Of a stretch of DNA of 64,000 bases, positions 5,735 through 47,875 are shown piece by piece. A program made the translations under genes and the position numbers. The notes below the pieces were generated by a model that was not told the DNA's origin, ran no database searches, and saw only the letters and a program-made list of their open reading frames with translations. This DNA is from a virus, in IMG/VR virus record IMGVR_UViG_3300027762_000001. The stretch is one strand, 5' to 3'. Each line of letters starts with the position of its first letter. The stretch's first letter is position 1.

Positions 5735-5758
5735 TACTCTTCCTCCTTAATTTATATT

Positions 5759-5791
5759 ATAAAAGGGTAGGTATGATACCCACCCTTTTAT
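5759..5791 (-). terminator. Stem-loop after major capsid gene
   Basis: ataaaagggtagg...cccacccttttat hairpin; weak U-tract. Confidence 0.45.
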
Positions 5792-5805
5792 TATAACAAT
5801 TAAAA

Positions 5806-6840: not shown

Positions 6841-6861
6841 TTTAGTTTGTCCTCCCTTCCA

Positions 6862-7278
6862 TTATATTACAGCTTTTATTCTAAGTTCGCCATTAACTGG
6901 AGCGCCCAAAGAATAAGCAGCTATTAACCAAGGTGTAGCGTTTGCTGGATCGTATGGAGTTAATACTCCATCAGCATTAACACAAAGCGGAGTCATAGCT
7001 CCATATGTTTCTGCAGTATCAAAATTACTTACTGTAACTTCGAAAACACCGAAATAATAAGTAACTTTTTTAACTGACTTTCCTGAAATCTGATCTCTTC
7101 CAGCTCTTTTTGAGCTTATGCAAAGAAACGATTTCTTTGTTCCATCTGAAATAACAACTTTACCTGAATCATTAATTGTTACCCATTGTCCTTCTTCAAG
7201 TTCTGTTACAGAATCATCAAGTGGTCTAACTGCAACTCTGTAAGCATACTCGTCTAACCTATTCTCAAATCTTATCAT
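6862..7278 (-). CDS. Putative head decoration protein
   Basis: 138-aa beta-rich ORF immediately upstream of MCP. Confidence 0.55.
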   Translation of the reverse strand: MIRFENRLDEYAYRVAVRPLDDSVTELEEGQWVTINDSGKVVISDGTKKSFLCISSKRAGRDQISGKSVKKVTYYFGVFEVTVSNFDTAETYGAMTPLCVNADGVLTPYDPANATPWLIAAYSLGAPVNGELRIKAVI

Positions 7279-7320
7279 GCTTAAACCTCCCTACTATGAT
7301 TTTTAATTTAAAAAAATTTA

Positions 7321-8484
7321 TTAATCTGATAATGACTCTTCAAGAGTGATTCTACGATCACCTAAATCCATATTAATTTGTTTGTCAAGAAAAGTCAAAT
7401 TATCAAGTCCTTCCTTGGTAAATGCGTCAGAATTGATGTTCTCAATTGTTGTTTTTAACATTTCATATCCAGACTCATCAAGTTGCATAACTTTCTCTAT
7501 CTGGCTTTCAATGTCTGCTTTTTTTATTAAGCACTTTTCATTCATTAAATGAGCAAGTTTTGTTGCACTGTCTAGTTTTTCTTTGTTATGTATTGTGGAA
7601 TTTAGTTCGGCGTTTTTAGATATTAACTCCTCATTTTCTTGTGCCAGTTTTCTATTTTCTTTAGCTGCGATTTTTAACATTTTGCTTGCGTTTAAAACGA
7701 CTAGTGATATTTTTTGTATATCTATATTTTTTTGTGATTCACTTTTAATTCTACCATATTTATCGTCGCAAAGAACAGATGATATTTTCTCAATTAATTC
7801 TTTTTTTCTTTCTGATTGATTTTTTTGCATTGCATCACCCTCTTTGCTCTCTTTTTTATCTCCATACAATTTAGATGTTATTGCTAGAGCTCCGACTGTT
7901 GGTAGTACCGCCTTCTTTACTTTACCTAAAGGTGCAGTTGCTAATGGTAAATCTATTTCGCTAAATGTATCAGGGACTCCAGCTTTTGATTCCCCTGTTG
8001 GAACTTGATATTTATTAATAAATGATTTACCGCCCTCACTTCTTGCTCTTGATACATTATCTCTCACACTTTTTTTTACAGAATCCAATCTAGATTTAGC
8101 TTTAGTTATATCTTCGAGGGTCTTAGCTTTAGTTAAAGCTAATCTTGCTCCCTCTAAATCTTTTCTCCCAGAAGATACGGCTTTTTTAACGCTTCTTCTT
8201 CTGAAAAAATTATGTGCGGCTCTACCTCCTCTTATATCCCAATCAGTTAGTTTTTCTTGAGCTTTTGAAAACTGATTTCCAATAGCTTCACTAACTTTTT
8301 TGGGTACAAGCTTTGAGCCAATTCCACTAAAGAAAGAACCTGAGCCTTTTCCTATTAAATGATCTCTAGCTATATCTTTAGCAGAAGATGTTGTACCTCT
8401 AAGATTTTGTTTCCCTATTATGTTGACAAAATCTTGAAAATTCTTAGCTTTTATACCTGCGAATTTATGGAGTCTGTGAGACAC
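7321..8484 (-). CDS. Scaffold-like coiled-coil protein with basic/amphipathic N-terminal extension; probable internal start at 7830
   Basis: GTG start with ggaggtga RBS; in-frame ATG at 7830 preceded by gagggtga; C-terminal coiled coil. Confidence 0.55.
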   Translation of the reverse strand: MSHRLHKFAGIKAKNFQDFVNIIGKQNLRGTTSSAKDIARDHLIGKGSGSFFSGIGSKLVPKKVSEAIGNQFSKAQEKLTDWDIRGGRAAHNFFRRRSVKKAVSSGRKDLEGARLALTKAKTLEDITKAKSRLDSVKKSVRDNVSRARSEGGKSFINKYQVPTGESKAGVPDTFSEIDLPLATAPLGKVKKAVLPTVGALAITSKLYGDKKESKEGDAMQKNQSERKKELIEKISSVLCDDKYGRIKSESQKNIDIQKISLVVLNASKMLKIAAKENRKLAQENEELISKNAELNSTIHNKEKLDSATKLAHLMNEKCLIKKADIESQIEKVMQLDESGYEMLKTTIENINSDAFTKEGLDNLTFLDKQINMDLGDRRITLEESLSD

Positions 8485-8500
8485 AAAAGCTCACCTCCTA

Positions 8501-9292
8501 CTATTCTTGCAATAAGCTATATATATTATAAATAATATCATCTGCTACTTGCATAGAATTTTTTTCTGCAATATAAGCTAGTTTCTCACTTTTATCAACT
8601 ATTGTTTCAATTGCCACTTTATCTTCTATCTTTTGTGAAACATAGTCAGCAAGATCCATTCCTTCTTTTTCTAACTCTTGAGCAGCTAAATCATATGCAT
8701 ACTTAACAACTTCTTCGTCATATTCTGCTGCAGTTTTATTTTCTTCTTCTTCAGTCTCTTCTTCAGCTTCTTCAGTTCCTTCTTGAGTAGCTTCAGCCAC
8801 TATTTTTTTAGCTATCTCTTGAGCTTTTTGAACAAGTTCTTCTTTATCTTGATTCTCTTCCGCTCTTTTTTCTACACCTTTAGCTAAAGCTGATTTTAGG
8901 AGTTTTTGTTCTGCTTCTGCTTCGCCTTCATCAATAACTTCATCTTCACTTTGAACTTCACTGTGATCTCTTTCTTCACTAGTATCAATTCTTTCGTCTT
9001 CACTCATTAACTCTTCTTCCATTGTTTTTCTTTTTGAGTGATTAACTTTGTCTTCTTTAGGTTGTTCAACAGTTCTGTTTTCTAATGAAGGTTCTTCAGC
9101 TACTTTTTCCATAAACATATTATCAATTTCTTCAGCTAAAGCCTCTAGTTGATCTGGTGAAAAATTTTCTTCAAGTATTTGTTTTGCTTCATTTTTATCA
9201 ATACTTGAAGCTGTCTTGTTAATATTATTTTGATAAAAATCTTGGCTTATTAACTCTTCGTAAAAAGCCTCACTTCTTTTATTATCAGACAT
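8501..9292 (-). CDS. Acidic scaffold-like head protein
   Basis: Very Glu-rich; many K-x-A sites (KTAS, EKVA, KSAL, EKRA, KTAA, KYAY, EKLA); between protease and MCP. Confidence 0.55.
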   Translation of the reverse strand: MSDNKRSEAFYEELISQDFYQNNINKTASSIDKNEAKQILEENFSPDQLEALAEEIDNMFMEKVAEEPSLENRTVEQPKEDKVNHSKRKTMEEELMSEDERIDTSEERDHSEVQSEDEVIDEGEAEAEQKLLKSALAKGVEKRAEENQDKEELVQKAQEIAKKIVAEATQEGTEEAEEETEEEENKTAAEYDEEVVKYAYDLAAQELEKEGMDLADYVSQKIEDKVAIETIVDKSEKLAYIAEKNSMQVADDIIYNIYSLLQE

Positions 9293-9398
9293 TTTCTTGT
9301 AATCGCTACAACCTTTGATATTTTAACAAAAATATCATATAGCGATTCTCTCCTTTCTTTTTTATTTTCAGCGATACTAAAAGCACTTGTTTATTTTA

Positions 9399-9427
9399 AT
9401 TTTATATACAAAAAACCTAAAAATCAA
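9399..9427 (-). promoter_or_regulatory. sigmaA-type promoter for scaffold/capsid genes
   Basis: TTGATT-N17-TAAAAT on minus strand. Confidence 0.55.
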
Positions 9428-9451
9428 GTAATCATTATCATTTAAAAAATA

Positions 9452-11821
9452 TCATGATTGTATTGTTTGATTTTTAATACTGTTTTTAGGTTTTTTTGTC
9501 AACTTATGTCCTATATATGCAAATATAGATGCGTCTACTAAATTTGATGGAAGAGCTGATAAGGCTGATTTTTTAGGATTGGTAAATAGTGAGTATGTGC
9601 CAACATCCTTTATTACCGAACCTATTGCTCCTGCAACTTTTTCTACAGTATAATTAAAATCTGTTTTTATAGCTTCTTTACATATATTTAAAAAATTATC
9701 TATATCATATTCGGATAATTTATTTATGGATAATATTTCATCTGCAACATCTTGTCTTTTTAATTCATTTAAGACACATGCATATTTTATTGCACTAATT
9801 TGTTTGTCAGTGTATTTTTCTTTTAAAGTTTTATCTATAGATGCATTTTTAAATATATTATTATTTTCATCATCTGCTTTTTTATAATATTTAGATGATA
9901 TATCTTGTAATTTTTTAGATACATCAAGTCCTTTACCTTTAAATGTTTTTACTATTTTTGGAGCAAATGCTTGAAGCACATATGCGTTAGCAGGATTTTC
10001 TGCCATGTATCTGTTAAACCCGCTTAAGTTTTCTCTATTTTTAAGTCTTGACCTTTGAATTGCAGAGTAACCAAATACAGCGGGTAGTCCATAGGCTAAG
10101 GCTTTTCTTGTAGTATATCCTTTACCTAGTAAAGCTGTTTTTTCTATAAACTCATTTGTTAAATTATCTATTGTGTCTCCCTCTATGTGTGATGCAAACT
10201 TTTCAAGCCCATATGTAAAGTTATCAGATGCTAAATGTTGAACTCTTTGCCCTTGGTAGTTGGCATATAATAGTGACGGTATAATATATTTTAAGAAGTC
10301 ACCTATACCATCAGTATCATTTCTCATTAACATTGCTGGCAAGAAATGAGGTGCATTATTAGTTAAAGGTTTGCTTGGCAAATTGGATATTCTATCAACA
10401 AAAAATCTTGGATGCATACTTCTTTGAGGCATCTCATCTTTTACAAAATCCATCATATCATTATATGCTAAATCTTCATTTAGCATAGGCAATCTTCTTT
10501 TTATTGTCACTATTATTGCTTTAACTTTTCCTAATGGATGTTTGCTTCCTCTTACTAAATCTTGTATATTATCTGTAATCGGAAGTATTTTTTCATTTAA
10601 CGTATCAAACATTGAAGGGAAATTTATTAATTTACTTATGTCGTTTCTTGCAACATTCTCATCTGCTATTTCAACACAATTTCCTGGAATATCAATATCT
10701 TTAAATTGTTCTCTAAAGTCAGATGGACTTGACCCTATTAAAGAATTAAATATATCATTAAACTCTAATGGTGTAAGCTCTATTCCTGCAAAGTCTAATA
10801 CTTTTAAAAATTGGTCGAAAGCATCTCTTAGTGGAAGCTCTTTTTTAATGGCAACTCTTTTTATATTTTCTGCAATCTCGACACATTTTTCTTTATTCCA
10901 ATATTCATCATAAAATAATTTTAAAGAACTTCTTAGATTTTCTATATTTTTATATCTATCACTTAACACTTCACCTTCTGCTGAGTTTGTAATTTTCCCA
11001 ACTATTTCTTTTTTTATGTCAGCTATTTTTTGAAGATATTCTTTTTTATTGGATGCTATCTTCTCAGGGAAAATTTCAAGACTATTAAGTATAAGATTAT
11101 CAACTTTATCATTCGCGCATTTTTCAATGCCTATATCCTCGTTAAGAAAGTTTTCTTTTATGCTAGCAACCTTTTTAATATTAGCATCAAAGCAACTCTT
11201 ATCAAGTTTTAAATCTAGAACTTTAGCTGATTTTTCAGCTCCATTTAAAACTGCAGATATATCATGAAATTTTGGCTCAATATTTATTTCAAAAATTTTA
11301 GTACCATCATCTAATACTTGATTCTTCATATTTCTAATATGGTTACAATACTCACTTCTTACTTTGGCTTTATTTCCACAATAAGAGCATACACTATGTT
11401 TTATTCTACATCCCATAGAAACATCAGTCATAAAACCTTTTTCAAATCCTCTAACAATAGTAGGGGCTAACTTTCTATCTACCCTTATTAGAAGTTTAAC
11501 ACATTTCATTTTATCATCCCATTGAGAATCCAAAACATCCCCAATAGCCTTTGATACATCTTTATTTTCGTGGTTTTTAAAAAAGTGAGCTGTTAAAAAT
11601 GTCTTGTAATTTTTCTTTAATTCATCTTCCGGAAAATAATCTGCATTTTTATTCGATCCGTAAAACTCTCCCGCACTTACAGCTTTTACTACCATATAAA
11701 AGAAATCAGAGTCGTATTTAATTCCATCTGGCAATTTAATTGCTGCGGTTTTTATTAAATTATCATCTAATATTTCAAAATTATCTTCATTTAAACTAAA
11801 AGTAGTTGTTTTGTAAAACAA
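9452..11821 (-). CDS. Prohead (capsid maturation) protease with Zn ribbon and long C-terminal extension
   Basis: N.NADYF, NH.N, DVSMGC, CSYCGN..YCNH, FHDISAV motifs; heads the capsid operon; extension rich in K-x-A sites. Confidence 0.7.
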   Translation of the reverse strand: MFYKTTTFSLNEDNFEILDDNLIKTAAIKLPDGIKYDSDFFYMVVKAVSAGEFYGSNKNADYFPEDELKKNYKTFLTAHFFKNHENKDVSKAIGDVLDSQWDDKMKCVKLLIRVDRKLAPTIVRGFEKGFMTDVSMGCRIKHSVCSYCGNKAKVRSEYCNHIRNMKNQVLDDGTKIFEINIEPKFHDISAVLNGAEKSAKVLDLKLDKSCFDANIKKVASIKENFLNEDIGIEKCANDKVDNLILNSLEIFPEKIASNKKEYLQKIADIKKEIVGKITNSAEGEVLSDRYKNIENLRSSLKLFYDEYWNKEKCVEIAENIKRVAIKKELPLRDAFDQFLKVLDFAGIELTPLEFNDIFNSLIGSSPSDFREQFKDIDIPGNCVEIADENVARNDISKLINFPSMFDTLNEKILPITDNIQDLVRGSKHPLGKVKAIIVTIKRRLPMLNEDLAYNDMMDFVKDEMPQRSMHPRFFVDRISNLPSKPLTNNAPHFLPAMLMRNDTDGIGDFLKYIIPSLLYANYQGQRVQHLASDNFTYGLEKFASHIEGDTIDNLTNEFIEKTALLGKGYTTRKALAYGLPAVFGYSAIQRSRLKNRENLSGFNRYMAENPANAYVLQAFAPKIVKTFKGKGLDVSKKLQDISSKYYKKADDENNNIFKNASIDKTLKEKYTDKQISAIKYACVLNELKRQDVADEILSINKLSEYDIDNFLNICKEAIKTDFNYTVEKVAGAIGSVIKDVGTYSLFTNPKKSALSALPSNLVDASIFAYIGHKLTKKPKNSIKNQTIQS

Positions 11822-30201: not shown

Positions 30202-30417
30202 ATGAAAAGAGGAATAAAAACATTTATACTTCCTATGCAGGATAAAGAAGCTTCAATTTTTATGAATAATAAAGATATAGTTGTAACACTAAAGGAGAGA
30301 CACTTTGCCCCAAAAGAGGGATTACTATATTTATATATAGAATATGACGACTTCGCTCCTGAAGGTGAAGATTATGAAGATTGTGATGAAGGTGGGTGTT
30401 TATTAAATGATACATGA
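30202..30417 (+). CDS. Small hypothetical protein overlapping RNAP start
   Basis: 71 aa, acidic tail, overlaps RNAP ORF by 11 nt. Confidence 0.55.
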   Translation: MKRGIKTFILPMQDKEASIFMNNKDIVVTLKERHFAPKEGLLYLYIEYDDFAPEGEDYEDCDEGGCLLNDT

Positions 30418-33400
30418 AAAAACTGAAGATTTAAAAAGAAGACTTATGAATTTTATGCAGAGGAATACACCCATTAAGGCTGATACTAGAAGTTTACATA
30501 TTGAGAACTTAACTATAACAGAGCCTTCAGCAGTAAATGATTTAGACCAACAGCTTAACATGAAGTATTCTGAATCAGGAAATTTAAAGGGTTGGCTTAG
30601 GGGAAATGTTACAGTTACAGACAATAAAACAAATAAAGAAATAGCAAAAACTAATCCGATAAATTTAATACCTGTATATTATATGACTGATAGAGGTACA
30701 TATATAAGTAATGGTATTGAGAAAAATATTTTAACTCAAATGAGATTAAAACCTGGAGTCTATACTGAAAAAGGTGCTGACATAAGAACCAATCTTATGT
30801 TTGATATGACAAAACAGTATCTTCCTAGAATAGATATTATATTTGATCCAGGTGCAATGTCATTTAAAATTATTATAAAAAGAGGAAAAGACACTAAATT
30901 TGATGGCATTGGATTTTTAAGAGAATTAGGTTTTTCTGATGCTGAAATAAAAAGAGCTATTGGTAACGATTCAGTTTCTGATATGCTATTTTCAGTAAGC
31001 AGAGAAAGAAAAAGTATATACGATATATTTAAAGCTATAACTGGTAAAACATCTAGTGATACGCCAGATAAAACAAGAGATATGTTATTTTCTTATTTTG
31101 ATAATGAAATGACGTTTGGAGAAGATGGTAAGGAGTCAGTTAAATCAACTATAAATTCAAGTTCTAAAAGTTTAAATAAAGATATAATATTAAGGTCTGT
31201 AAATAAAAACTTTGCGGTATTTAGAAATGAAGTTGAAGAAGACGATAAAGATGATTTAAGATTTAAAGTTGTATCAGATGATAATGATTTGATAATGGAA
31301 GAAGTTGCACAAGACTTTGAGGTATTTAAATCATCTGTAATAAATACTTTAAATACAAGAGAAGTTTTAAATTCATCAGACTTAAGAGGATTAACTAAGT
31401 TAGGGAAAAATATTGATAAATTCATGAAAGAAAGTGATTTATCGCAAAATCCGGAACAGACTAATCCACTAGAAATAGCATCCATTGATAGAAAAGTTAC
31501 TCAGATAGGTGGGTTTCAAGGTATATCAAAAGACAATGCTGACAAAGTTATTAAACCAAGAAACTTAAAAGCTATGGCAATTAATAGATTAGATCCAGTT
31601 GAAACTCCAGAGTCAACAAAGATAGGATTAATAGAACATTTAACTCAAAGTGCTGAGGTTAAAAATAAAACTATTAGTACAGAGTTTATAAAAGTAAAAG
31701 ATGGCGTTGCCGTAAATACTCTTGCCAATGTAGTTAAATTAACTCCAGATAAAGAGTATGACTCTAAAGTTGCCTTTTATGATTTAAGATATATAAGAAA
31801 AGATGGTAACAAAATAATATTTACAAAAGATGTAATTCCAGGAAGATATAAAAGTAAAATTCAAGATATTCATATAAGTGAAATACAGTATGTTGATAGA
31901 GCTCCGCAAAACCTTTTAAATTATGCTGCAAATATGATACCCTTCGTAAGTCATGATGATGGAAACAGAACACTTATGGGTACTAATATGCAAAGACAGG
32001 CTGTCTCAATTATCAACAGAGAAGTTCCACTTGTTATGTCTGCGTCTGACGATAAAAGGACATATGAAGATGTTATAGGGGAAAAATATGGGAAGCCAGT
32101 AAATTCAACGACTAGTGGAGTTGTAAAAGATATAACTTCATCTAGAATAATAATTAAGGATGAAAAAGGAAAAGAGCATGCTCATAATTATTACGACCAT
32201 TTTCCTGTCAATCAAAGTTTTATCAATAATGAGCTATTAATAAAAAAAGGACAAGAAGTAAAAAAAGGTCAAATGCTTGCAGAAGGATGGCAAACTAGAG
32301 ACGGTAAACTTGCCTTAGGTGCAAATGCAAGAGTTGCTTATATGCCATTTAAAGGCTTTAACTATGAAGATGGTGTAGTTGTAAGTAAAGACTTTGCTAA
32401 TAAAATGTCAAGCGAAGAAATGCATCAAGTAGAAATTGAAATTTATTCTGACTACTTAGGTGGTAAAGGTAGTAACATACGGGATGAGCTAAAAAAGTAC
32501 ACAGTTAACCAAGAAATTTTAACTAGGCTAGATAAAGACGGAATAATAAAAGAGGGCTCATACGTAAAGCCAGGCAATATACTAGTGGCATTCTTAGCTC
32601 CAGAAGATAAATATGAAACTTATGGACTATCAGAAGTCTTAGGAATTAAAAAGAAAAATGTAACTTATAAGCTGGGCCAAAAAATAATAGAGGAATCTAG
32701 TTATTTAGAAGGTACAGTTAAAAGAATAAATATAATAGAAAGTCCTGAAGCAGGAATAAAACAAAAAATAGTAGTATCTCTTTTAAGTGAAAAGTCATTA
32801 AAGCTAGGAGATAAAATTTCTGGTAAGCACGGAAATAAAGGAATAATAACAAAGATACTCCCTACATCTGAGATGCCTGTAGCTGAAGATGGCAAAAATG
32901 TTGACTTAATCTTTTCTCCATTAGCGGTACCTTCAAGGAAAAATTTAGGCCAATTATTAGAAGTCAATGCTGGATTAATAGCAGAGAAAAAGGGAAAACC
33001 TTTTATTGTAAATAATTTTGACCCTAAAGAAAAAGAGAGAGTTGAAAAAGAATTAAAAGAAATAGGTATTCCTGATGGAAAAATGAAAGTTAGCTTAAGA
33101 GAAAGACAAGACGATGACAGCATTAAAGAAATCCCTGTAGACAATCGTGTTACAGTTGGCAATATGTATATAATGAAATTAAAACACAAAATTGATGATA
33201 AAGTTCAATCAAGAAGTAACATTGAAGGTGTTGCTCCTGAAAGAAAAACATTTATGCCTGCTAAAAAATTAGGTCAGGCACAAGGCGAAAAGTACAATCC
33301 TCAAAGACTTGGTGAAATGGAAATGAGGGTATTGCAAGCTCATGGAGCTGTTCATAATATATTAGAGAGCTCCACTATAAAAGCTGACGGTGGAGGAAAT

Positions 33401-36400
33401 GAACAAAATAGAATAGCAATATACAATGCTATAGCCACAGGAAAACTAGATAGCTTAGATTTTTCTGCCACTCCAGAGACTATAAATGTAATGGCTGATA
33501 CATTAAAAGGGCTAGGCTTAAATGTAAAACCTATCAATAATGGAGATGTAGCTAAATCATTTGATGAAGCTTATGATAGTTTAGCTGTTGTGCCTATGAA
33601 ACCTAGTCAAATGATTAAAATGATAGGTAAGGATAACGAGGTTACTCAGCCAAAAATGTATGACGCAAAAGCTGGAGGAAGACAAGTCCCATATAGAAGG
33701 GGGCTTGCTGACCCTGAAATTTTTGGAGATGATAAGAGCTCAGATTTAGAGGATAGAAAAAAATGGGGTTATATAAAACTTGGCACTCCAATTCCAAACC
33801 CTATACTTATGTCCAATGCATCATACAATCCATACTCTTTAATAACTGGGATGAAAGATAGTCAGTTGAAAGAGTTAATGGACGGTAAGAAAGTTATGGT
33901 AATTGACCCTGAAAAATATGAGGCTTTTAAGGGTAATAAAGAAAAGATAGAGGAAGTAAAAGCGAATATGGATAAGCTAGGTTTTAAGCCTGGTGATTTA
34001 GTTGATCCTCAAAAGCTTGAAAAATTAGATTTAGATAGTAATGTAATTTTATGGAAAGCTGGAGGAGAAGGCATTCAGCATTTATTAGATAATGTTGATC
34101 TGGAATCTGAACTGAAAAAATCAGAACAAAAACTAAAAGATGCCAAGCCTAAAGATATAGATAAACATTATAAAAAATATAAATCACTTTTAACATTAAA
34201 AAATAACAACTTAAATCCTGGTGACTTAATGCTTCACTATCTACCTGTTACGCCTCACTACTTTAGACCCACTCAAATGCAAGGTAAAAAAGTAGTATTG
34301 TCAGATTTAAGTGAACTCTATGGTAATGTTATAAAATCTAATAACTCTATAATTAATAACTATGAAAGTGGCTTTGACATGATAGGTGACTCAGACCCTG
34401 AACAGGCTGCAAGACTTACTAGGTCACTTTATAAGACAGTGTCTTATGCAACTGGAGACAAGGAATATTATCATCCACGAAAGAAACGAAAAATGCTAGG
34501 AATAATAGAGAGTTTAGGTAAAAAAGAAGGCCTTATAAGAAATAAAATGCTAGGGAAAAGAGTAGATTTTTCTGGAAGGTCAGTTATTGGTGTTGATCCT
34601 AACTTAAAGTTAGATGAGGTTGGAATTCCTCTTGATATGGCTAAAAATATTTACAAGCCTTTTATAGTTAAAGAATTAATGAGTAGAGGCTTGGCTAAAG
34701 ACAGAAAAGAAGCTACTAAGAAGATAAAAAAAGGTGATAGTGATGTTAAAAAGATATTAGATGATTTAGCAAAAGACAGACCAGTATTATTAAATAGAGC
34801 TCCATCACTACATAAATTTAATATACAGGCTTACACTCCCGTTATAAAAGATTATCAGGATGGCGAAGCTGTGAAGATAATACAATTAAATCCGTTGTCT
34901 GTATCAGGCTACAACGCTGATTTTGACGGGGACACTATGTCTGTCCACCTCCCTGTAACTGAAAAGGCCAATGAGGAAGCTAAGAAACTAATGAGACCAT
35001 CAGATAATTTAATAAATCCTACAAATGGAAAAATGATAGTTGAAATACGTCATGAGATGGCATTAGGCATATATTATCTAACGATGAGCTCTGACAAGGT
35101 AAAAGGTGAAGGTAAAACATATAGCAATATAGAGCAATTAAGAAAAGATTTTAAAGATGGAAATATAAATGTAAAAGATAAAGTTACTATCGGAGGCAAG
35201 ACATCAACAGCAGGTCAAGCAATGTATAATTTACTCTTACCTGAAAAATATAGAAATTATAGTTTAGCATGGTCCGCAAAAGATATATCTAAGATGTTTT
35301 TAGAGATGTATCAAGAAGCAGAAAGAACTAATGGAAAAGCTATATCTATAAGTGAAGTTAGTAGAATATTAGATAATGTAAAAGATTTAGGTTTTGAAGC
35401 ATCTACAAGGTCTGGAATTAGTATAGGTATTGGTGACTTTAAAAAGATAGAAGATGCAGATCAATTATTCGATTCACATGTGAAAAAAGAAATGAAGACA
35501 AATAAAAATCCTAATGATGCTAAAATACAAGGTTGGCTTAAAGCTGAAGGAGAAATACAGGATAGGCTTAAAAAAGGTGAAATTTTAGCATATGATAATC
35601 CTGTTCAAATAATGATGGCATCAGGTGCAAGGTCAAAACCTGACCAAGTAAGAAGAATGATGGTAAGTGTTGGTGTTGGTATGGATTTGACCGATAAATT
35701 AACAAGCCCAGTTAAACACTCTCACTTAGATGGATTATCTCCACAAGAGTACTGGACTCACAGTTACGACTCTAGAAAAGGTATGTATGATAGAACCGTA
35801 GAAACGAGAGAGCCAGGAGCATTCTCTAGAGAGGTATGGAGTGTAACTCAGGATATTGTGATAAAAGAAAAAGATTGCAAGACTCGTGACGGAATAAGTA
35901 TACCAAAATCAAACCCATCAGCATTAGGAAGATTTTTATCTGAAGATGTTTTAGGTACATCTTCAATAATTGCAACGAGAGATTCGCTAATAACAAAAGA
36001 GGTATATGATAAAATTTATAAAGATGAAACTGTGAAAATGATAAAGATAAGGTCTCCATTAAAATGTAAGGTTGTAAATGGCCTTTGTCAGAAGTGTTAC
36101 GGAACTATGCCTGGTACTATGCAAACTGCAAGTATAGGCTCTCCAACAGGAGTTATAGCATCACAAGCATTATCTGAGCCTGCAACGCAGATGACAATGA
36201 ATACATTCCATAGTGGAGGAACAGGGTCAGCTGCAACAGTTGGATTTCCTAGAATTAAACAAATACTTAATTTATCAAAAGATAGTGAGAGTAAAGCAGT
36301 CTTAGCTAGAACATCGGGCAATGTTATATCTATCAAAAAGGGTGCAAAGGGAACATTTGATATAGTTAGAATAAGTAATGTTGACCATAACGTTCCTCAC

Positions 36401-37237
36401 ACAAAAGAAGGTGCTAGTCAAAAGATTAAAGTTTCTATTGGTGATAATGTAATAAAGGGTGACTTTTTAACTTACGGAGATATAGATGATATAAATGCTG
36501 GAGAAAAATTAATATTATCAGCAGACCCAAGAGAGATGTTTGCGTTGAAGAGTGAAGAGCTAGGTCAAGATAAGGCATGGGATTATACTCAGAACTATTT
36601 AACTAACAGCATACAAAGAGCTTATGAAGATACATTTGGAATAGGGGCTGTAGATAATAGGCATTTAGAAACAGTGGTGTCTAAAATGACTTCGAGAGTT
36701 ACGATAATGGATCCGGGAGATTCAAACTTTATAAGAGGCGATGTAGTAGAAAAGAATCAAGCAGACCAATGGAACTCTATCAATGCTGGTGAGTTTAGTG
36801 TTAAAACTAAGAATGTAAGTAATGCAGGTGAAATCTTAAACAGTGTTGCGCATGAAACATATAAAGATAGAGCTGGAAATACAATAGTTTCAAAAGGTGA
36901 TATGTTTACAGAAGAAAATATTCCAAAATTAATGTTAGCAAATATAAGCCAAGTAAAAGTTAAACCAAAGCCAGTTAAATATAATATAGAATTATTAAGT
37001 AAGAATCAGGCGGTAACAAAAGGGCATGATAATTGGCTTAGTAATATGGGTCATGAAAATGTAAAAGAACAATTAACAAGAGCGGTTGTTAAAGGACAAG
37101 TTGATAAATTAAATGACCCTAGAACTAGACTCATGACAGGAAAGCTGTTAAATATCGGTGAAGGGTTTAATGCTGTTAAACAGAAAGCTAACAGTATTGC
37201 AAATAGGATGTTCAACTTCTTTAGTAAAGATGATTAA
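30407..37237 (+). CDS. rpoBC: Fused beta-beta' DNA-directed RNA polymerase
   Basis: beta: PVETPE..KIGL, IPF..HDD.NR.LMG.NMQRQA, G.NYEDG, GDK..G.HGNKG, KL.H..DDK, QRLGEME; beta': LGKRVDFSGRSVI, NRAPSLH, YNADFDGD (34913-34933), RSPLKC..CQKCYG, EPATQMTMNTFH. Confidence 0.97.
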   Translation: MIHEKTEDLKRRLMNFMQRNTPIKADTRSLHIENLTITEPSAVNDLDQQLNMKYSESGNLKGWLRGNVTVTDNKTNKEIAKTNPINLIPVYYMTDRGTYISNGIEKNILTQMRLKPGVYTEKGADIRTNLMFDMTKQYLPRIDIIFDPGAMSFKIIIKRGKDTKFDGIGFLRELGFSDAEIKRAIGNDSVSDMLFSVSRERKSIYDIFKAITGKTSSDTPDKTRDMLFSYFDNEMTFGEDGKESVKSTINSSSKSLNKDIILRSVNKNFAVFRNEVEEDDKDDLRFKVVSDDNDLIMEEVAQDFEVFKSSVINTLNTREVLNSSDLRGLTKLGKNIDKFMKESDLSQNPEQTNPLEIASIDRKVTQIGGFQGISKDNADKVIKPRNLKAMAINRLDPVETPESTKIGLIEHLTQSAEVKNKTISTEFIKVKDGVAVNTLANVVKLTPDKEYDSKVAFYDLRYIRKDGNKIIFTKDVIPGRYKSKIQDIHISEIQYVDRAPQNLLNYAANMIPFVSHDDGNRTLMGTNMQRQAVSIINREVPLVMSASDDKRTYEDVIGEKYGKPVNSTTSGVVKDITSSRIIIKDEKGKEHAHNYYDHFPVNQSFINNELLIKKGQEVKKGQMLAEGWQTRDGKLALGANARVAYMPFKGFNYEDGVVVSKDFANKMSSEEMHQVEIEIYSDYLGGKGSNIRDELKKYTVNQEILTRLDKDGIIKEGSYVKPGNILVAFLAPEDKYETYGLSEVLGIKKKNVTYKLGQKIIEESSYLEGTVKRINIIESPEAGIKQKIVVSLLSEKSLKLGDKISGKHGNKGIITKILPTSEMPVAEDGKNVDLIFSPLAVPSRKNLGQLLEVNAGLIAEKKGKPFIVNNFDPKEKERVEKELKEIGIPDGKMKVSLRERQDDDSIKEIPVDNRVTVGNMYIMKLKHKIDDKVQSRSNIEGVAPERKTFMPAKKLGQAQGEKYNPQRLGEMEMRVLQAHGAVHNILESSTIKADGGGNEQNRIAIYNAIATGKLDSLDFSATPETINVMADTLKGLGLNVKPINNGDVAKSFDEAYDSLAVVPMKPSQMIKMIGKDNEVTQPKMYDAKAGGRQVPYRRGLADPEIFGDDKSSDLEDRKKWGYIKLGTPIPNPILMSNASYNPYSLITGMKDSQLKELMDGKKVMVIDPEKYEAFKGNKEKIEEVKANMDKLGFKPGDLVDPQKLEKLDLDSNVILWKAGGEGIQHLLDNVDLESELKKSEQKLKDAKPKDIDKHYKKYKSLLTLKNNNLNPGDLMLHYLPVTPHYFRPTQMQGKKVVLSDLSELYGNVIKSNNSIINNYESGFDMIGDSDPEQAARLTRSLYKTVSYATGDKEYYHPRKKRKMLGIIESLGKKEGLIRNKMLGKRVDFSGRSVIGVDPNLKLDEVGIPLDMAKNIYKPFIVKELMSRGLAKDRKEATKKIKKGDSDVKKILDDLAKDRPVLLNRAPSLHKFNIQAYTPVIKDYQDGEAVKIIQLNPLSVSGYNADFDGDTMSVHLPVTEKANEEAKKLMRPSDNLINPTNGKMIVEIRHEMALGIYYLTMSSDKVKGEGKTYSNIEQLRKDFKDGNINVKDKVTIGGKTSTAGQAMYNLLLPEKYRNYSLAWSAKDISKMFLEMYQEAERTNGKAISISEVSRILDNVKDLGFEASTRSGISIGIGDFKKIEDADQLFDSHVKKEMKTNKNPNDAKIQGWLKAEGEIQDRLKKGEILAYDNPVQIMMASGARSKPDQVRRMMVSVGVGMDLTDKLTSPVKHSHLDGLSPQEYWTHSYDSRKGMYDRTVETREPGAFSREVWSVTQDIVIKEKDCKTRDGISIPKSNPSALGRFLSEDVLGTSSIIATRDSLITKEVYDKIYKDETVKMIKIRSPLKCKVVNGLCQKCYGTMPGTMQTASIGSPTGVIASQALSEPATQMTMNTFHSGGTGSAATVGFPRIKQILNLSKDSESKAVLARTSGNVISIKKGAKGTFDIVRISNVDHNVPHTKEGASQKIKVSIGDNVIKGDFLTYGDIDDINAGEKLILSADPREMFALKSEELGQDKAWDYTQNYLTNSIQRAYEDTFGIGAVDNRHLETVVSKMTSRVTIMDPGDSNFIRGDVVEKNQADQWNSINAGEFSVKTKNVSNAGEILNSVAHETYKDRAGNTIVSKGDMFTEENIPKLMLANISQVKVKPKPVKYNIELLSKNQAVTKGHDNWLSNMGHENVKEQLTRAVVKGQVDKLNDPRTRLMTGKLLNIGEGFNAVKQKANSIANRMFNFFSKDD

Positions 37238-42545: not shown

Positions 42546-43784
42546 ATCCTCATCCACTTCAAAACTTACTCCTAATTCATCTATACCCTCAATATCTTCT
42601 GGTATTATTTTTTCATCTAATGGCTCTATGCCAGACTCTTTTAATCTCTCATTTGTTTTTTTGATTTGCTCATCTAAAATATCTTCTGTTCTTTGTTTAT
42701 AAAGTTCCATGAGTATTGCATTCGAATGTTTATCTGCATTACCCGTTGATACTCCTGTCTTTATATTCTCCACTTTATCATGAGCAAAACTCATGATTTT
42801 TGCAACTTTAAATAATGAATCAACAACATCTCTATCTTTGTGTCCGTCTAACTGTAGGAATCTCTCATAACCTTTAGCCACAACATCTGTGAACATTTTT
42901 TCAAAATCACCCTGTTCTGCTTGAGCTGTTCTAAAGGAGAACTCGGAATACACCATGTTTAATGTTTTAATATTATCATCTAATTCTTTAACTCTTTGTT
43001 CTGATTGTTTTTTAATAACTAATTTCTCTCCAACCTCTAAATCTTTATACGCTGACAAATTATCTATATCTTTTAAAAGATTAACTAATGCTGCCTTTTC
43101 GCCTTCTAATGTCTTTATTTTAGATTCTATATCATGAGTCTTTATATTGAAGAACACTTTCTTATAAAGACCTATATCATAATTAAAGATTTTCATATCT
43201 AAATTTTTATTACAATACTCGCATATTCTAGAATCTGGAACACATTCTAATAACATTTTATCTACCAAATATCTTTTTGGATGAATTAATATTTTTTCTA
43301 TAGATTGTCTCGTAAATGTTGTATCAATTAATCTTTCACCATTTTGGTCAACAGGGACATTTGTAGTTGAGCCATAAAATCTGACTATTTCATTTGCCCA
43401 TAGAGCATCTACCTCTAAATCTTTTACCATTTTGCAAAAACTTTCTTGATCGTCTGGTGCATCAGATAGTTCAAGATTAAAATTTAATATATTTTTTTGA
43501 AATGCTTTACTCTTTTTATTTGTTAATATTTTATTCTTGTAATCACTATATACGTATCCTAAGTTATATTGTTTTATTACAGGGTCTATCACATTTAAGT
43601 AATATATAACAAGATTAGGCTCGTGAGGAGCTGAAAGTCCAAGTTTGAAAAGTTCTGCCTTTATAAAAGTTGGAGAGTATCTTTTTGTTAAAAGATATCT
43701 TATATATCTTACGTGTGGTTTTGACTCAATTGCCTTTATTATGTTTATGCATCTTTCTTTGCTAAAATTAAAATCTGTAGCCAT
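42537..43784 (-). CDS. Hypothetical helical/coiled-coil protein
   Basis: 415 aa, acidic tail; no family recognised. Confidence 0.65.
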   Translation of the reverse strand: MATDFNFSKERCINIIKAIESKPHVRYIRYLLTKRYSPTFIKAELFKLGLSAPHEPNLVIYYLNVIDPVIKQYNLGYVYSDYKNKILTNKKSKAFQKNILNFNLELSDAPDDQESFCKMVKDLEVDALWANEIVRFYGSTTNVPVDQNGERLIDTTFTRQSIEKILIHPKRYLVDKMLLECVPDSRICEYCNKNLDMKIFNYDIGLYKKVFFNIKTHDIESKIKTLEGEKAALVNLLKDIDNLSAYKDLEVGEKLVIKKQSEQRVKELDDNIKTLNMVYSEFSFRTAQAEQGDFEKMFTDVVAKGYERFLQLDGHKDRDVVDSLFKVAKIMSFAHDKVENIKTGVSTGNADKHSNAILMELYKQRTEDILDEQIKKTNERLKESGIEPLDEKIIPEDIEGIDELGVSFEVDEDNK

Positions 43785-43793
43785 GTCTACCCC

Positions 43794-44096
43794 CTACTTT
43801 ATTGTCCTAATTTGATTATTTTTTAGTTCCTTCATTTTCTCTCCAGGCTTTTTAATTGTAACAAATGAAGTAAAAGAACTTTCGTCTGGAGCAATGCTTA
43901 CATTTGTATAGTCCTTAACAATGTCCTCAACTAAGGTTCTAATTACAGGCATTAATTGTACAAGCTCTGGCATTACTTGCTCAGCTTCAATATTTAGCTT
44001 ATCTTTCTTATTAAAAAATCTTTTTGCTGCCTCATAAATATCATCAAAAGGATTATTTTTAATATGCAAAATATATTTTTTAATTTGTGCGTTCAT
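43794..44096 (-). CDS. Hypothetical protein
   Basis: gaggggtga RBS; upstream TTGAAA-N17-AATAAT (44113-44141, minus). Confidence 0.6.
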   Translation of the reverse strand: MNAQIKKYILHIKNNPFDDIYEAAKRFFNKKDKLNIEAEQVMPELVQLMPVIRTLVEDIVKDYTNVSIAPDESSFTSFVTIKKPGEKMKELKNNQIRTIK

Positions 44097-44191
44097 AACT
44101 CACCCCTCTTTCATTATTGCATATCCGCGTCTTGTTTTCAAGTAAGATGCAAATTATGATAGTTTTGCGTTTTAAGTTTTTTTTAAAAATT

Positions 44192-44208
44192 TAGTATAAG
44201 AAATAAAA
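44192..44208 (+). promoter_or_regulatory. Phage promoter-like motif, copy 5
   Basis: TAGTATAAGAAATAAAA. Confidence 0.65.
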
Positions 44209-44236
44209 TAAATTAATTAAAAGGGGAAATGAAAAC

Positions 44237-44452
44237 ATGAAATTTTTTAACTTTAGTGAGAAGGCAAAGAAGCGAATTAAAGTAGGAACGGCAGTTGGAA
44301 CGGCTATTTTAGGGGTAGTACTTGTAGTTTTTGGATTCAATTCAAAAAGTAAAAATTCAGAAGAAGATTCAAATGACCAAGAAGACACAGAAAATGAAAC
44401 TGTAGATAACAACAATGACGAAGATAATGAAATAAAGATCACAGAGTTTTAA
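44237..44452 (+). CDS. Small single-TM protein with acidic tail
   Basis: VGTAVGTAILGVVLVVFGF; terminator 44457-44487. Confidence 0.65.
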   Translation: MKFFNFSEKAKKRIKVGTAVGTAILGVVLVVFGFNSKSKNSEEDSNDQEDTENETVDNNNDEDNEIKITEF

Positions 44453-44486
44453 ATTTAATAAAGGGCCTAACGGCCCTTATTTTTTT

Positions 44487-46619
44487 TCATGCAGTTCCCT
44501 TTATGGAGTTATGAAACTTACTTATAGCACCTTTTAATGTGTCCGCTTTACCGCATGCTCTATGTGTATGAGTCACATATGTAGTTTTTCCATCCTTGTT
44601 TACACTTTTCCAAACTGCTGAGTCACCATTACTCCATGTAGCTTTAGACTTATAAACTTCTTCTTTTTCTTCTTTTGATAATGGAACTTTATTATCTTTT
44701 AACTTTTCAAAATTTGATTTTGTCTTAGCTTCTTTATACATTCCATCTATATAGTCTGCAACTTTATTATTCTCTTTTAGCGTATCAAATAATAATTTAT
44801 TTTGTTTGTCTTTATGTTGAGCGATTTCATATATAAATTCATCAGGTGTCTTATCTCTTGACTTAAATATACCTAAAAACTTTGGCATAGTAGCTATATA
44901 TCTATTTACATTTACAACTCTATCTTTCTTAGGTCTATGACTTAACCCACCACTTCTTACACCTCTTGCCTCCATCTGCTTCATTTTTTCAGGATTATAA
45001 TGAGGGTCCAATACACCTTCCCAAGTTGTATCATTTAATGATAAACCCTCTCCACCAGCAGAAGATATTATCATAACCTTTTTATTGCCTTTATTAAAAT
45101 CCTCTATATCTTTTTGTCTTCCTTCTTCTGTAATTCCAAAATTACCTTTGCCTGTAAATTTACCATATTGAATACCTTTTGATTTTAACCCCTGTTCAAT
45201 AGAATCTGTACCACCCTTTATTAAGTGACTAAATAATATTGCTCTTCCATCAGGAGTTTTCCCTAAATGTTCTTCCATATCGCGCAAAAGAGTGTTTAGT
45301 TTTGGAGTTAATTTTGGACCGTCTTTTGGTGATATCTTTGGGTTTATAGCACTTATATCGTTCATTAATTTTCTTGCTTCAACTAATTTTGAAAAAACTT
45401 GAGCAGCCTCTTCATCTTTTAAAGTTTCAAGCCTCTTTGTTCTTATCATTTTTCTAACTGCTGGATTATCCTTTAATATACCTTTATATAATTTTTTTTG
45501 CTCTTTACTGAGAGGTACCTTCGTAATACTTACAGCTTTATCAGGCATTTTAGCTATTTCTTTTATATCATTAACATCTAAATAATCTACATATTTTTTT
45601 AATTCGTTTTGTAATAATCTTTTATTTTTAAAACCTAAAACAGGCTTTCTTTTTTCATGCAAGTCTCTATACTTCCAAGACCTATCTCTTTTTAGCCACA
45701 TTTGCTCAAATTGTTTTTTATTTTTTCCTAATATATGTTTTTGTCCAGAGGCAACATCAACTAAAGGCTGAATATCAGCTAATGAGTTAGATACTACAGA
45801 GCCTGTTAATCCAATATAATTAGGATAAAGTTTTCTTGTTTTCTTTAGAGCTTCAGTAACTGCTGTATCTTCATTTTTACCTTTGTGACTCTCATCTGTT
45901 ATAACTGTGTCAGCTCCAGTTTCCCTTATATAATACTCAGGGTCTTTTTTAAATAAATCATAAGATACTATATTGTAATCTTTATTCTTGTCAGGTAGTC
46001 CATATTTGCTATTTTTCTTTGATAGCTCAGCTTTATTTCCAACAATATTGTATGAACTGTTTGTGAATTTTTTTATTCCAGATGAACCAAAATTCATTCT
46101 AAGTCCAGATGGTACGACTACCAATGCTCTATTGGCCTTTCCATCTTGTTTCATTTTTTCAAATTTAGCAATTGCAGTTAAGGTCTTTCCGCTTCCAACA
46201 GGATGCGCTAAAACTTTTTCTGTGCTAGGATCTTCTGCTACACGTTTTTGATGAGGGTAAAGCTGGATGTTGTCTCTTAAAGCAGCCTCTTTATACATTC
46301 CATCTATATAGTCTGCAACTTTAATATCCCATCTAGGCTCATAAGTTTTCTTAGAAAGATTTGCTTGATTTATATTTTTTATTTTGAATCGTCTAATATT
46401 ATTTCTTAGTTTACAATAGCCGAAATAATCGTCTCCACGAATCTCGTAAGGCTCTGTTAATCTCATTGTGGAGTCACCTTTTTTATCAGTATACCAAATC
46501 TTTAAAAGATTTTTATTGTTGCCAGCTTTTTTTATTTTGCTTTTTACTTTTTCTTCAAGGGGTATAGCATGCCTCCCCATTGCATATTTATATATAATTT
46601 CTTTATATGAATCCTTCAA
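44487..46619 (-). CDS. WYL-SNF2/SF2 helicase fusion with small C-terminal domain (candidate polyprotein)
   Basis: WYL (Y.D.KG..T.R..EPY..YC..R...R.F); LYPHQ, VGSGKT, DESH, GLTG, GGEGL.L, W, Q..ARG.R; KVADYIDGMYKEA on both sides of the helicase. Confidence 0.88.
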   Translation of the reverse strand: MKDSYKEIIYKYAMGRHAIPLEEKVKSKIKKAGNNKNLLKIWYTDKKGDSTMRLTEPYEIRGDDYFGYCKLRNNIRRFKIKNINQANLSKKTYEPRWDIKVADYIDGMYKEAALRDNIQLYPHQKRVAEDPSTEKVLAHPVGSGKTLTAIAKFEKMKQDGKANRALVVVPSGLRMNFGSSGIKKFTNSSYNIVGNKAELSKKNSKYGLPDKNKDYNIVSYDLFKKDPEYYIRETGADTVITDESHKGKNEDTAVTEALKKTRKLYPNYIGLTGSVVSNSLADIQPLVDVASGQKHILGKNKKQFEQMWLKRDRSWKYRDLHEKRKPVLGFKNKRLLQNELKKYVDYLDVNDIKEIAKMPDKAVSITKVPLSKEQKKLYKGILKDNPAVRKMIRTKRLETLKDEEAAQVFSKLVEARKLMNDISAINPKISPKDGPKLTPKLNTLLRDMEEHLGKTPDGRAILFSHLIKGGTDSIEQGLKSKGIQYGKFTGKGNFGITEEGRQKDIEDFNKGNKKVMIISSAGGEGLSLNDTTWEGVLDPHYNPEKMKQMEARGVRSGGLSHRPKKDRVVNVNRYIATMPKFLGIFKSRDKTPDEFIYEIAQHKDKQNKLLFDTLKENNKVADYIDGMYKEAKTKSNFEKLKDNKVPLSKEEKEEVYKSKATWSNGDSAVWKSVNKDGKTTYVTHTHRACGKADTLKGAISKFHNSIKGTA
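44731..44766. repeat. 36-bp exact direct repeat, copy 1
   Basis: tctttatacattccatctatatagtctgcaacttta. Confidence 0.92.
46288..46323. repeat. 36-bp exact direct repeat, copy 2
   Basis: tctttatacattccatctatatagtctgcaacttta. Confidence 0.92.
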
Positions 46620-46646
46620 GAAAAATCACCACCTTACCTAAGATTA

Positions 46647-46664
46647 TAGCATAAGAAATAAAAG
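46647..46664 (+). promoter_or_regulatory. Phage promoter-like motif, copy 6
   Basis: TAGCATAAGAAATAAAAG. Confidence 0.65.
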
Positions 46665-46690
46665 ATTTAAAAGAAGGGAAGGATGTATTA

Positions 46691-47269
46691 ATGAATTCAA
46701 AAATTTTAGATGTAGGATTTAAATTATTGGTGTTAGTAGGAGTAGCTGTAGCTGGAGGAGCATTAGGAATTTATATCTCAGAAAAGAAAGAGAATATTAT
46801 TATTGAAGATTTAAATGAGGAAGTTGAATTTAGAAATAATGAAATAAATGAGTTAACTGTTAAACTTGAATGTTTAGAAGAGGAACTTTTAAATAGAAGT
46901 ATAGAGCTTCAAAAAAGTAATGATAAGATGAAAAGATTAAAAACATGGGAGGAAGACTTAAGTTTAAGAGAAAATTCAACATCATCTATAGAGGATAAAC
47001 TTAATGGAGAGAAAAAGGAGCTTAGTTTAAAATCTCAACAATTAGATGAGAAAGAAGCTAAATTAAAAGCTATGGCTCTTAATGATTTAAAATATAAAAT
47101 TGATACAGTAGAAGAGATTATCAAGGAAATAGATAAACTAAAAGAAGAAAATAGTGACTCGTCAGTATTAATAAAGGAAATAGACAGATTATTAAAAGAT
47201 AAAAACGATTCAAGTATAGATAAATTTCTATTTAGGTCTGATATAAATTTAACATCAATAGAAATTTAA
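46691..47269 (+). CDS. Membrane-anchored coiled-coil protein
   Basis: N-terminal TM then long heptads. Confidence 0.7.
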   Translation: MNSKILDVGFKLLVLVGVAVAGGALGIYISEKKENIIIEDLNEEVEFRNNEINELTVKLECLEEELLNRSIELQKSNDKMKRLKTWEEDLSLRENSTSSIEDKLNGEKKELSLKSQQLDEKEAKLKAMALNDLKYKIDTVEEIIKEIDKLKEENSDSSVLIKEIDRLLKDKNDSSIDKFLFRSDINLTSIEI

Positions 47270-47296
47270 AAAAATATTTTTAAAACGCATTTTCTG

Positions 47297-47314
47297 TAGT
47301 ATAAGGGATAAAAG
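47297..47314 (+). promoter_or_regulatory. Phage promoter-like motif, copy 7
   Basis: TAGTATAAGGGATAAAAG. Confidence 0.65.
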
Positions 47315-47452
47315 TAAAAGAAAGGAAGTGATAACAATAAGTGGAAGTGTAAAAACAATCATAGCAGTTTTAAGGTCTGTACTAATACGTATCTTCAAGT
47401 TTTAACATAAATATAACTAATAAAATTTTAAAAAATGAAAGGGTGTTGAATT

Positions 47453-47875
47453 ATGATGGAATTTATTAAAAACGAGGTAGTTAAAAAGGTAATGGAATAT
47501 CTAGGGATAGCATTTGTTTCAGTATTTATATTGAAGATATTTGAAAAGATACTAGATATAATGAATGAGGCAAAACCGGCAGAAAAGAAAACAGCAGTAG
47601 ACTTATTTAAATCCGCAACAAGAAGAGCAAAAAGAGGAGAAGGGTTCGATAATGTTGAAGGTGTTGCTACTGATGCAATAGTTAAATATAAGATTGAACT
47701 AGCAAAGAAAATAAAAGATAAAGAAAAAGAAGTTGAAAATAATAAACCTGCAGAACCTAAAGCTGAGGAAGTTAAAGCAGAACCTAAAGCTGAGGAAGTT
47801 AAAGCAGAACCTAAAGCTGAGGAAGTTAAGGCAGAAGAAAAGAAAACTGAAGAAAAGAAAGATAATAAAAAATAA
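47453..47875 (+). CDS. Membrane-associated protein with EPKAEEVKA repeats
   Basis: Hydrophobic N-segment; three 27-bp tandem repeats ~47753-47833; terminator 47908-47934. Confidence 0.7.
   Translation: MMEFIKNEVVKKVMEYLGIAFVSVFILKIFEKILDIMNEAKPAEKKTAVDLFKSATRRAKRGEGFDNVEGVATDAIVKYKIELAKKIKDKEKEVENNKPAEPKAEEVKAEPKAEEVKAEPKAEEVKAEEKKTEEKKDNKK

Follow-up and report, generated by a model that had tools for sequence, protein, structure and literature searches.

A leader peptide recurs at the module junctions of a phage WYL-SNF2 protein, and two of its copies are identical in DNA

The gene considered here encodes a three-module protein with an SNF2-family ATPase at its centre and lies on the minus strand at positions 44487-46619 of a 64,000-nucleotide stretch of viral DNA from IMG/VR virus record IMGVR_UViG_3300027762_000001; this whole stretch is referred to as the window, and coordinates refer to it unless the genome is named. 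The open reading frame (ORF) encodes 710 amino acids (81 kDa), and the order leader-WYL-KVADYIDGMYKEA-SNF2-KVADYIDGMYKEA-79-residue basic domain, proposed in an initial annotation of the sequence, was borne out by Pfam and by the ORF itself. The DNA encoding the two internal leaders holds an exact 36-nt direct repeat, TCTTTATACATTCCATCTATATAGTCTGCAACTTTA, at 44731-44766 and 46288-46323, with no further copy in the window, and against these two matches none was expected from 100 shuffles. The identity and the spacing given in that annotation are likewise correct: the copies are 1557 bp apart (3 x 519, or 519 codons) and lie in frame, both inside the ORF, and with two mismatches the pair widens to 44 nt at 95% identity (44727-44770 and 46284-46327). 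Both encode the peptide KVADYIDGMYKEA, at residues 100-112 (leader copy 1, 46284-46322) and at residues 619-631 (leader copy 2, 44727-44765), the latter being the leader of the C-terminal module; these and the other features of the protein given below are on the minus strand. A third, diverged copy, SYKEIIYKYA (residues 4-13), is part of the protein only if translation starts at the TTG at 46619. Because AAGGTGG lies 7 nt before this TTG and no ribosome-binding site precedes the next ATG (M14), the TTG-initiated, 710-residue form is likely favoured over the internal start, and the N-terminal leader (residues 2-13, KDSYKEIIYKYA, 46581-46616) was recovered both by a profile match (E = 8.5e-6) and by a pattern match.

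The WYL domain, a sensor-type module, occupies approximately residues 21-97 (46329-46559). With residues 1-100 searched alone, its Pfam match (PF13280, residues 27-86) reaches 26.3 bits (cut-off 21.8), compared with 21.4 bits in the full protein, and five strands at residues 37-92 of the AlphaFold2 model, with predicted local distance difference test (pLDDT) values of 78-88, form an SH3-like beta-barrel. The SNF2-family ATPase core (residues 113-618, 44766-46283) has the two RecA-like lobes of that family, matching SNF2-rel_dom (PF00176, residues 135-421; 68.2 bits, cut-off 24.9) and Helicase_C (PF00271, residues 448-557; 45 bits, cut-off 23.5), and carries the catalytic motifs GSGKT (142-146, Walker A), DESH (242-245) and QMEARGVRSGG (548-558, motif VI), which are nearly invariant in the family alignment. 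The best profile for the core is phrog_62 (E = 1e-52), matched over positions 682-1177 of 1881. The protein scored 46.2 bits with the DISARM DrmD model (NF038318), far from the equivalog cut-off of 950, and no adenine methylase domain was found among its Pfam, PHROGs and NCBIfam matches. A weak likeness to vaccinia NPH-I over residues 497-662, covering the second lobe (PDB 6rfl_Y, E = 1.2e-4; PF08469 NPHI_C, E = 0.046), may be only a lead and possibly reflects just general superfamily 2 (SF2) helicase similarity. In the AlphaFold2 model of the full protein (mean pLDDT 83), the WYL barrel and a confident two-lobe ATPase were recovered; leader copy 1 forms a low-confidence helix (residues 98-111, pLDDT below 50) between two confident domains, and a long helix at residues 592-641 drops in confidence along leader copy 2.

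The C-terminal module (C-domain; residues 632-710, 44490-44726) is a basic domain of 79 amino acids with an isoelectric point (pI) of 9.7 that ends in IKGTA. Modelled with its own alignment (pLDDT 87), it shows a helix-three-strand-helix core with two preceding helices, and its conserved pattern is ..AVWKS..TYVTNTHRAY..TLKGAI..H.FIKGTA. The family comprises 266 clusters at 50% identity (E <= 0.001), with P0122-P0271 among its members, in proteins of 63-1429 aa, in which the domain is almost always C-terminal or else is followed by another leader; it often also has a leader before it (FYKEGIEKIAK, YETEIYKEAKM, IDELEKIAK). Neither Pfam nor Foldseek against the PDB (E <= 0.001) returned a match for this domain, a wide VIA-align search gave only weak entries resembling double-stranded RNA-binding domains or HPF (best Z 3.9), and an Atlas search produced no informative cluster. 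The pI and the modelled topology invite the suggestion that the domain binds nucleic acid, but this is only a guess.

The window belongs to a contig of 152,620 bp with 30.7% GC, the ends of which (genome 1-123 and 152498-152620) overlap exactly over 123 bp, with a cluster of leader-bearing genes spanning the junction; the assembly is likely to be complete, either circular or circularly permuted. Its gene products include a tail sheath, a large terminase, a major head protein, a 789-aa protein (window 9452-11821) whose N-terminus matches a head-maturation protease family, and a fused beta-beta' RNA polymerase of 2276 aa (window 30407-37237). No close cultured relative was found, the major head protein being only 30% identical to gp27 of Bacillus phage G, and a megablast search of window positions 43500-47500 against phage records returned no match.

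Across this genome, the leader is a recurrent element of approximately 13-15 aa with the consensus M-D/N-K-V-A-x-Y-x-x-x-I/M-Y-K-x-A. The pattern Y...[IMLV][YV]K.A, written with the motif already in hand, occurs 13 times in the predicted proteome compared to 0.24 times in residue shuffles (maximum 3 in any of 200), and at least 10 genes have the leader ahead of a module or between modules. At N-termini (for example MDKVAMYKEVIYKIA, MNKVAMYKDAIYKLA, MDKIAMEKVAMYKEAIYKEA, MDKVAMYKEEIVKMA and MDKVTTYREYIIKIA), it is found on unrelated proteins, namely the products of window ORF 5354-5734, of genome ORFs 146932-147642, 147618-148568 and 148572-149948, of an ORF running off genome position 1, and the SNF2 protein. 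Internal leaders stand between the modules of longer proteins, mostly in the cluster at genome 144-152.6 kb and 1-1.9 kb, where, in an 800-aa protein, two internal leaders come after an ATP-dependent ligase domain. A looser variant, ..[FYM][IML]EK.[AS], occurs 6 times compared to 0.21 in shuffles, and its carriers include an acidic, scaffold-like 263-aa protein, the protease-bearing 789-aa protein and portal-adjacent proteins. The major head protein begins MAGIMKIKTA-S, and the head proteins (its N-terminus, the 263-aa and the 789-aa protein) have only the looser form of the motif (..EK.A, IKTA). As the initial annotation had supposed in likening the linker to a tag, the peptide is thus portable, recurring at N-termini and at module boundaries both in this phage and in its relatives.

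The comparison covered 120 homologues of the SNF2 core with 48-66% identity. Homologues sit on contigs of 141-170 kb, and across phages of this group the family seems to be widely conserved. Stand-alone proteins of approximately 520 aa make up 73 of the set, a further 30 are extended in some other way at the N-terminus and 9 at the C-terminus, and 8 carry a WYL domain, two of them with the C-domain as well; WYL was counted by pattern here, and BLAST adds P0031 and P0042 (homologous proteins and loci are labelled P and L, respectively), which by pattern had counted with the 30 N-terminally extended proteins. The closest stand-alone homologues open with the leader MDKVAMYKDYIYKQAAL, leader copy 1 aligns with MDKVAMYKDYIYKQA at the opening of stand-alone homologues, and K-x-A-A-L directly precedes the ATPase core across the family, indicating that leader copy 1 is the native N-terminal leader of the SNF2 module. 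WYL-leader-SNF2 fusions are represented by P0003-P0008, and P0031, P0042 and P0120 also fuse WYL to SNF2. On L001, a 166-kb viral contig, the gene reads WYL-leader-SNF2-stop, and the next genes open with MDKTTELEQKIYKEA and MDKVAYYEDIIYKEA, of the MDK..IYKEA type, and have internal leaders too. On L002 (168 kb, more GC-rich; positions 2489-10225), a different leader, MEKISMEKIA or MEKIA, is found on every neighbouring gene and junction. The leader therefore co-varies between phages, being Y...IYK.A in this phage and L001 but MEKISMEKIA in L002, as would be expected of a signal read by a phage-specific partner.

The same modules also occur alone and in other combinations and orders, with the breakpoints of homology at the leader. 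P0006 (1043 aa) has the order WYL-L-SNF2-L'-C-domain-L'', followed by further modules, with MYYAEICKTA as L and YLGEMYKQA as L'; since its linkers are diverged, the three-module order is older than the repeat. The nearest WYL domain, that of P0272 (76% identical), is joined to glycine-rich cargo rather than to SNF2. Homology at the DNA level (approximately 75%) between its locus, L010, and the window stops exactly at ...RWEIK, just before the leader, after which L010 continues with GGAGG, ATGATG and a leader of its own. The WYL frame of the P0272 gene (L010 300-360) runs on through this GGAGG and ATGATG start signal into the next leader-bearing module, and the gene looks like a fusion through stop-codon loss. 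P0273 is a free 79-aa WYL protein that ends RWDIKV-stop. A free 79-aa WYL gene was also observed on a 118-kb groundwater contig (L005 6001-9388), followed by a 1045-aa gene with an intein (Hom_end_hint and LAGLIDADG matches). On L011, whose SNF2 core is the closest, the gene just upstream terminates in the C-domain, and a stand-alone leader-SNF2 gene starts 3 nt further on, an order reversed with respect to the window. In a tree of SNF2 cores, the window protein groups with the stand-alone forms and not with the WYL-SNF2 clade, P0031 and P0042 fall in a third clade, and the approximately unbiased (AU) test rejects a single WYL-bearing clade (difference in log likelihood 59, p = 0.0015). Whichever the history, the WYL-SNF2 junction has arisen or been lost on several occasions.

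We then considered how the two copies in the SNF2 gene came to be identical in DNA. The peptide variant ADYIDGM occurs within the genome only in the two repeat copies, and degenerate DNA scans for ADYIDGMYKEA gave no matches in the viral and metagenome contig collections. Given identical peptides and the codon usage of this genome, the chance that 11 codons match is approximately 0.002, and both copies use the minority GAC codon (22%). Relatives do not share such identity: their leader DNA is 68-83% identical on L001 and 85-94% on L002, with no repeats on L008, implying that exact DNA identity is not functionally required. Within the genome, the same kind of local homogenisation was seen in two other multi-leader genes. 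The leader copies at genome 272 and 1016 have 40 exact nt in common, those at 606 and 150692 have 26-28 nt in common with them, and the two leaders of gene 147618-148568 (at 147931 and 148477) have 23 exact nt in common; taken together, these copies make up much of the genome's complement of dispersed exact repeats that reach 20 nt or more. A 381-aa protein (L003 2768-3913; genome 145770-146939) consists of three tandem modules of approximately 120 aa, each opened by MYEEMYKVAKFEA or YYAEEMYKEAKFEA, and its gene has exact DNA repeats of 58-71 nt at spacings of 360 and 414 nt, pointing to recent module duplication at the leader.

The account that we favour, with more confidence than doubt, is that the three modules were each led by a short leader and that the two copies flanking SNF2 would have been made identical in DNA by a recent event of short extent between adjacent leaders, either gene conversion or unequal crossover. 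Conversion or crossover is preferred over a fresh insertion of SNF2 because P0006 has the same order with diverged linkers and because the GC content at third codon positions (GC3) is genome-typical, with 0.186 for the SNF2 core compared to a genome mean of 0.201 +/- 0.035, so that base composition gives no hint of foreign DNA inserted recently. The direction of conversion was probably from copy 2, the C-domain leader, onto copy 1, the SNF2 leader, since copy 1 departs from the SNF2-leader consensus (A-M/F-Y-K-D-x-I-Y-K) exactly where it equals copy 2, and since copy 2 resembles the leaders ahead of the C-domain elsewhere, as in P0006 (YLGEMYKQATT) and P0128 (YETEIYKEAKM). Several points weigh against this reading and its evolutionary setting. 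The leader patterns were composed after the motif was known, which inflates their enrichment, large as the contrast with shuffles still is; no genome near enough to date the conversion was found among phage records or in the viral and metagenome collections; the identity gap that places the SNF2 core outside the WYL clade is small (65% compared to 64%); and the tree does not separate independent fusions from repeated losses or splits of WYL.

The initial annotation had gone further in proposing that the linker acts as a recombination boundary through which cargo is added or removed. On an evolutionary scale this holds, given that homology starts and stops at the linker and that modules are fused, split and reordered; an active cassette from which SNF2 is excised does not gain support. 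In such a cassette the leader DNA would be a recombination site, SNF2 would leave and re-enter the gene in frame at an appreciable rate, full and empty alleles would coexist, and cargo would be swapped between co-infecting genomes. The repeats could make in-frame loss of SNF2 mechanically possible, the deletion yielding by computation a WYL-leader-C-domain protein of 191 aa and 22 kDa, and the exact direct repeats, their in-frame spacing, the occurrence of locally identical leaders as three distinct sets within a single genome and the breakpoints of relatives at leaders all fit. Nevertheless, a check for the empty allele (WYL-leader-C-domain) among the 266 C-domain clusters and the short WYL proteins found none, no further DNA for ADYIDGMYKEA appeared in the viral or metagenome collections, the module exchanges observed are all old (45-76% identity), and 36 bp is a short substrate; we therefore hold this mechanism to be unlikely, though it is the strongest of the alternatives. 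Taken as a whole, the earlier interpretation is partly supported.

Somewhat less credible again is that the repeat is the scar of an insertion, whereby an ancestral WYL-leader-C-domain gene recently gained or swapped its SNF2 module and the leader was duplicated in the process. The grouping of the SNF2 core with stand-alone proteins rather than with the WYL-SNF2 clade, and the fact that WYL and C-domain are each nearest to relatives of other architectures, would agree with this. However, the three-module order of P0006 with its diverged linkers, the genome-typical GC3 of the core and the wide distribution of WYL-SNF2 fusions (P0003-8, P0031, P0042, P0120) argue against it, and a simple double crossover would leave the leader unduplicated. 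If instead no recombination had taken place and strong selection on the peptide, together with codon bias, had kept the copies identical, the linker would be a structural spacer only. This is in line with the AT-rich genome, its strong codon bias and the conservation of the peptide motif across phages, but against it stand the ADYIDGM variant, common to the two copies and absent elsewhere in the genome and the searched collections, the shared rarer GAC codon, the low chance of 11 matching codons and the leaders of relatives, which vary freely at synonymous and non-synonymous sites; we regard it as very improbable. Slightly lower still in our estimation stands an assembly artefact joining unrelated pieces at a shared 36-mer. 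While metagenomic assembly is the probable origin of the contig and reads are longer than the repeat, the 710-codon frame is unbroken over both junctions, both junctions recur in independent homologues (WYL-leader-SNF2 in P0003-P0008, SNF2-leader-C-domain in P0006), the contig is single and circular with its 123-bp end overlap, and a two-copy repeat allows only one linear path.

The surroundings of the gene include several candidate signals. A sigma-70-like promoter match (TTTAAA-17 nt-TG-n-TATAAT, with an extended -10; 46643-46671, minus strand) is found 24 nt before the start by consensus alone, and promoter-consensus matches across the region as a whole are no commoner than in shuffles. Directly past the stop codon, a GC-rich hairpin (44461-44478), with runs of T on either strand, resembles a bidirectional terminator. 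A 17-nt motif, TAG(C/T)ATAAG(A/G)(A/G)ATAAAA, has intergenic copies at 44192-44208, 46647-46663 and 47297-47313; the reverse complement of the copy at 46647-46663 contributes the TGCTATAAT extended -10 before the SNF2 gene, so that the motif may act on either strand. Further along, a 27-nt tandem repeat at 47733-47875 encodes three copies of AEPKAEEVK at the C-terminus of a 140-aa ORF (47453-47875).

Based on the distribution of the leader, a mechanism can be proposed in which it forms an exposed helix that would be read in trans. The likeliest reader would be the head-maturation protease, or another prohead component, with a putative cut after K-x-A. Herpesvirus assemblin, the fold of which is common to phage prohead proteases, cuts between A and S in (V/L/I)-x-A-S, and this serves as a lead only. 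Modules would then be released after translation and perhaps packaged as putative virion cargo, by analogy with the precedent of the polyvalent proteins DarB and DdrB of phage P1. With modules separated post-translationally, fusion or fission of genes at the leader would be nearly neutral, and the many architectures could be explained because fusing or splitting at the leader costs little if modules are cleaved apart; the short conserved coding stretch of the leader would in turn supply in-frame microhomology for module shuffling. A complex predicted between residues 1-215 of the 789-aa protein, its protease domain, and SNF2-protein residues 596-645 scored 0.00, providing no evidence either way, and a literature search on a K-x-A prohead cleavage motif or on the leader found nothing, the phage G paper (PMC12484599) being without cleavage data. 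A further point stands against this proposal, in that the SNF2 gene has its own promoter match and terminator and lies approximately 30 kb from the main leader-gene cluster, which does not suggest late, head-linked expression.

In its fullest form, the proposal gives the leader two roles. As a peptide it would address modules to the prohead and mark the protease cut, and as DNA it would be a portable homology arm by which cargo such as the SNF2 motor is inserted, deleted, permuted and exchanged in frame, within the genome and between co-infecting phages, leaving a population with alternative cargo sets and the 36-bp repeats as the working substrate. We consider this combination doubtful. If the leader is a cleavage and targeting signal, these phages, approximately 150 kb in size and equipped with a fused RNA polymerase, could vary the enzymes that they load into the virion (the SNF2 motor and a ligase among them), this cargo set would be predictable from sequence by means of the leader alone, and the leader would offer a tag ready for use in bringing foreign proteins into capsids. 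The C-domain, as an uncharacterised family of 266 clusters, is a useful finding in itself, as is the conservation of the SNF2 family.

The SNF2 motor could help the phage RNA polymerase, act on injected DNA or strip host proteins. Poxvirus NPH-I is an SNF2-family ATPase that is packaged in virions and cooperates with the viral RNA polymerase. Like NPH-I and bacterial RapA/HepA, the window protein has an SNF2-type ATPase core, and the phage has a fused beta-beta' RNA polymerase of its own. However, the likeness to NPH-I is at the level of SF2 helicases in general, and the analogy to RapA drawn in the initial annotation fails at the family level, with 24.3 bits for the RapA model (NF003426) compared to an equivalog cut-off of 576; a link to the RNA polymerase is speculative here. 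The capsid-targeting sequence of phage T4 is found on internal proteins and is removed by the prohead protease gp21. The leader resembles it in being a short N-terminal peptide on unrelated proteins, with a related motif in head-assembly proteins that carry or adjoin the protease, but differs in that it is also internal, between modules, and ends in K-x-A rather than L/I-x-E; both targeting and cleavage are putative in the present case.

At the level of whole proteins, the closest parallel is with the polyvalent proteins of phages and conjugative elements, with P1 DarB and DdrB as archetypes, which combine SWI2/SNF2 ATPases with effector modules in shuffled architectures; packaging in the head and delivery together with the DNA have been proposed for them, and some are proteolytically processed (Iyer et al. 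2017, PMC5512222). The window protein likewise joins several domains, WYL, SNF2 and C-domain, in one polypeptide that is shuffled among relatives, and its match inside the 1881-position phrog_62 profile is consistent with a helicase module within much larger proteins. In contrast, it has neither a DarB-type methylase partner nor an embedded peptidase, and its packaging is putative; the description of polyvalent proteins (PMC5512222), in which the word 'linker' is absent, includes no leader at each module junction and no DNA-identical leader copies. For the junctions themselves, the nearest comparison is with the VENN-type junctions of CdiA/Rhs toxins with their orphan cassettes, where recombination between conserved stretches has been proposed to reload modules (Poole et al. 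2011, PMC3150448). Here the modules belong to phage proteins and not to toxin/immunity pairs, they stand in series in one ORF or in adjacent genes each with a start codon, and no promoterless orphan cassettes were seen. In both systems, nonetheless, a short conserved peptide-coding stretch marks the start of a module, and homology between loci begins or ends there, as in L010, P0273 and L011. The DNA pattern thus presents a concrete case of domain shuffling via a short conserved junction, documented until now mainly for polymorphic toxins, and such junction-guided shuffling may go some way towards accounting for the construction and rearrangement of polyvalent phage proteins.

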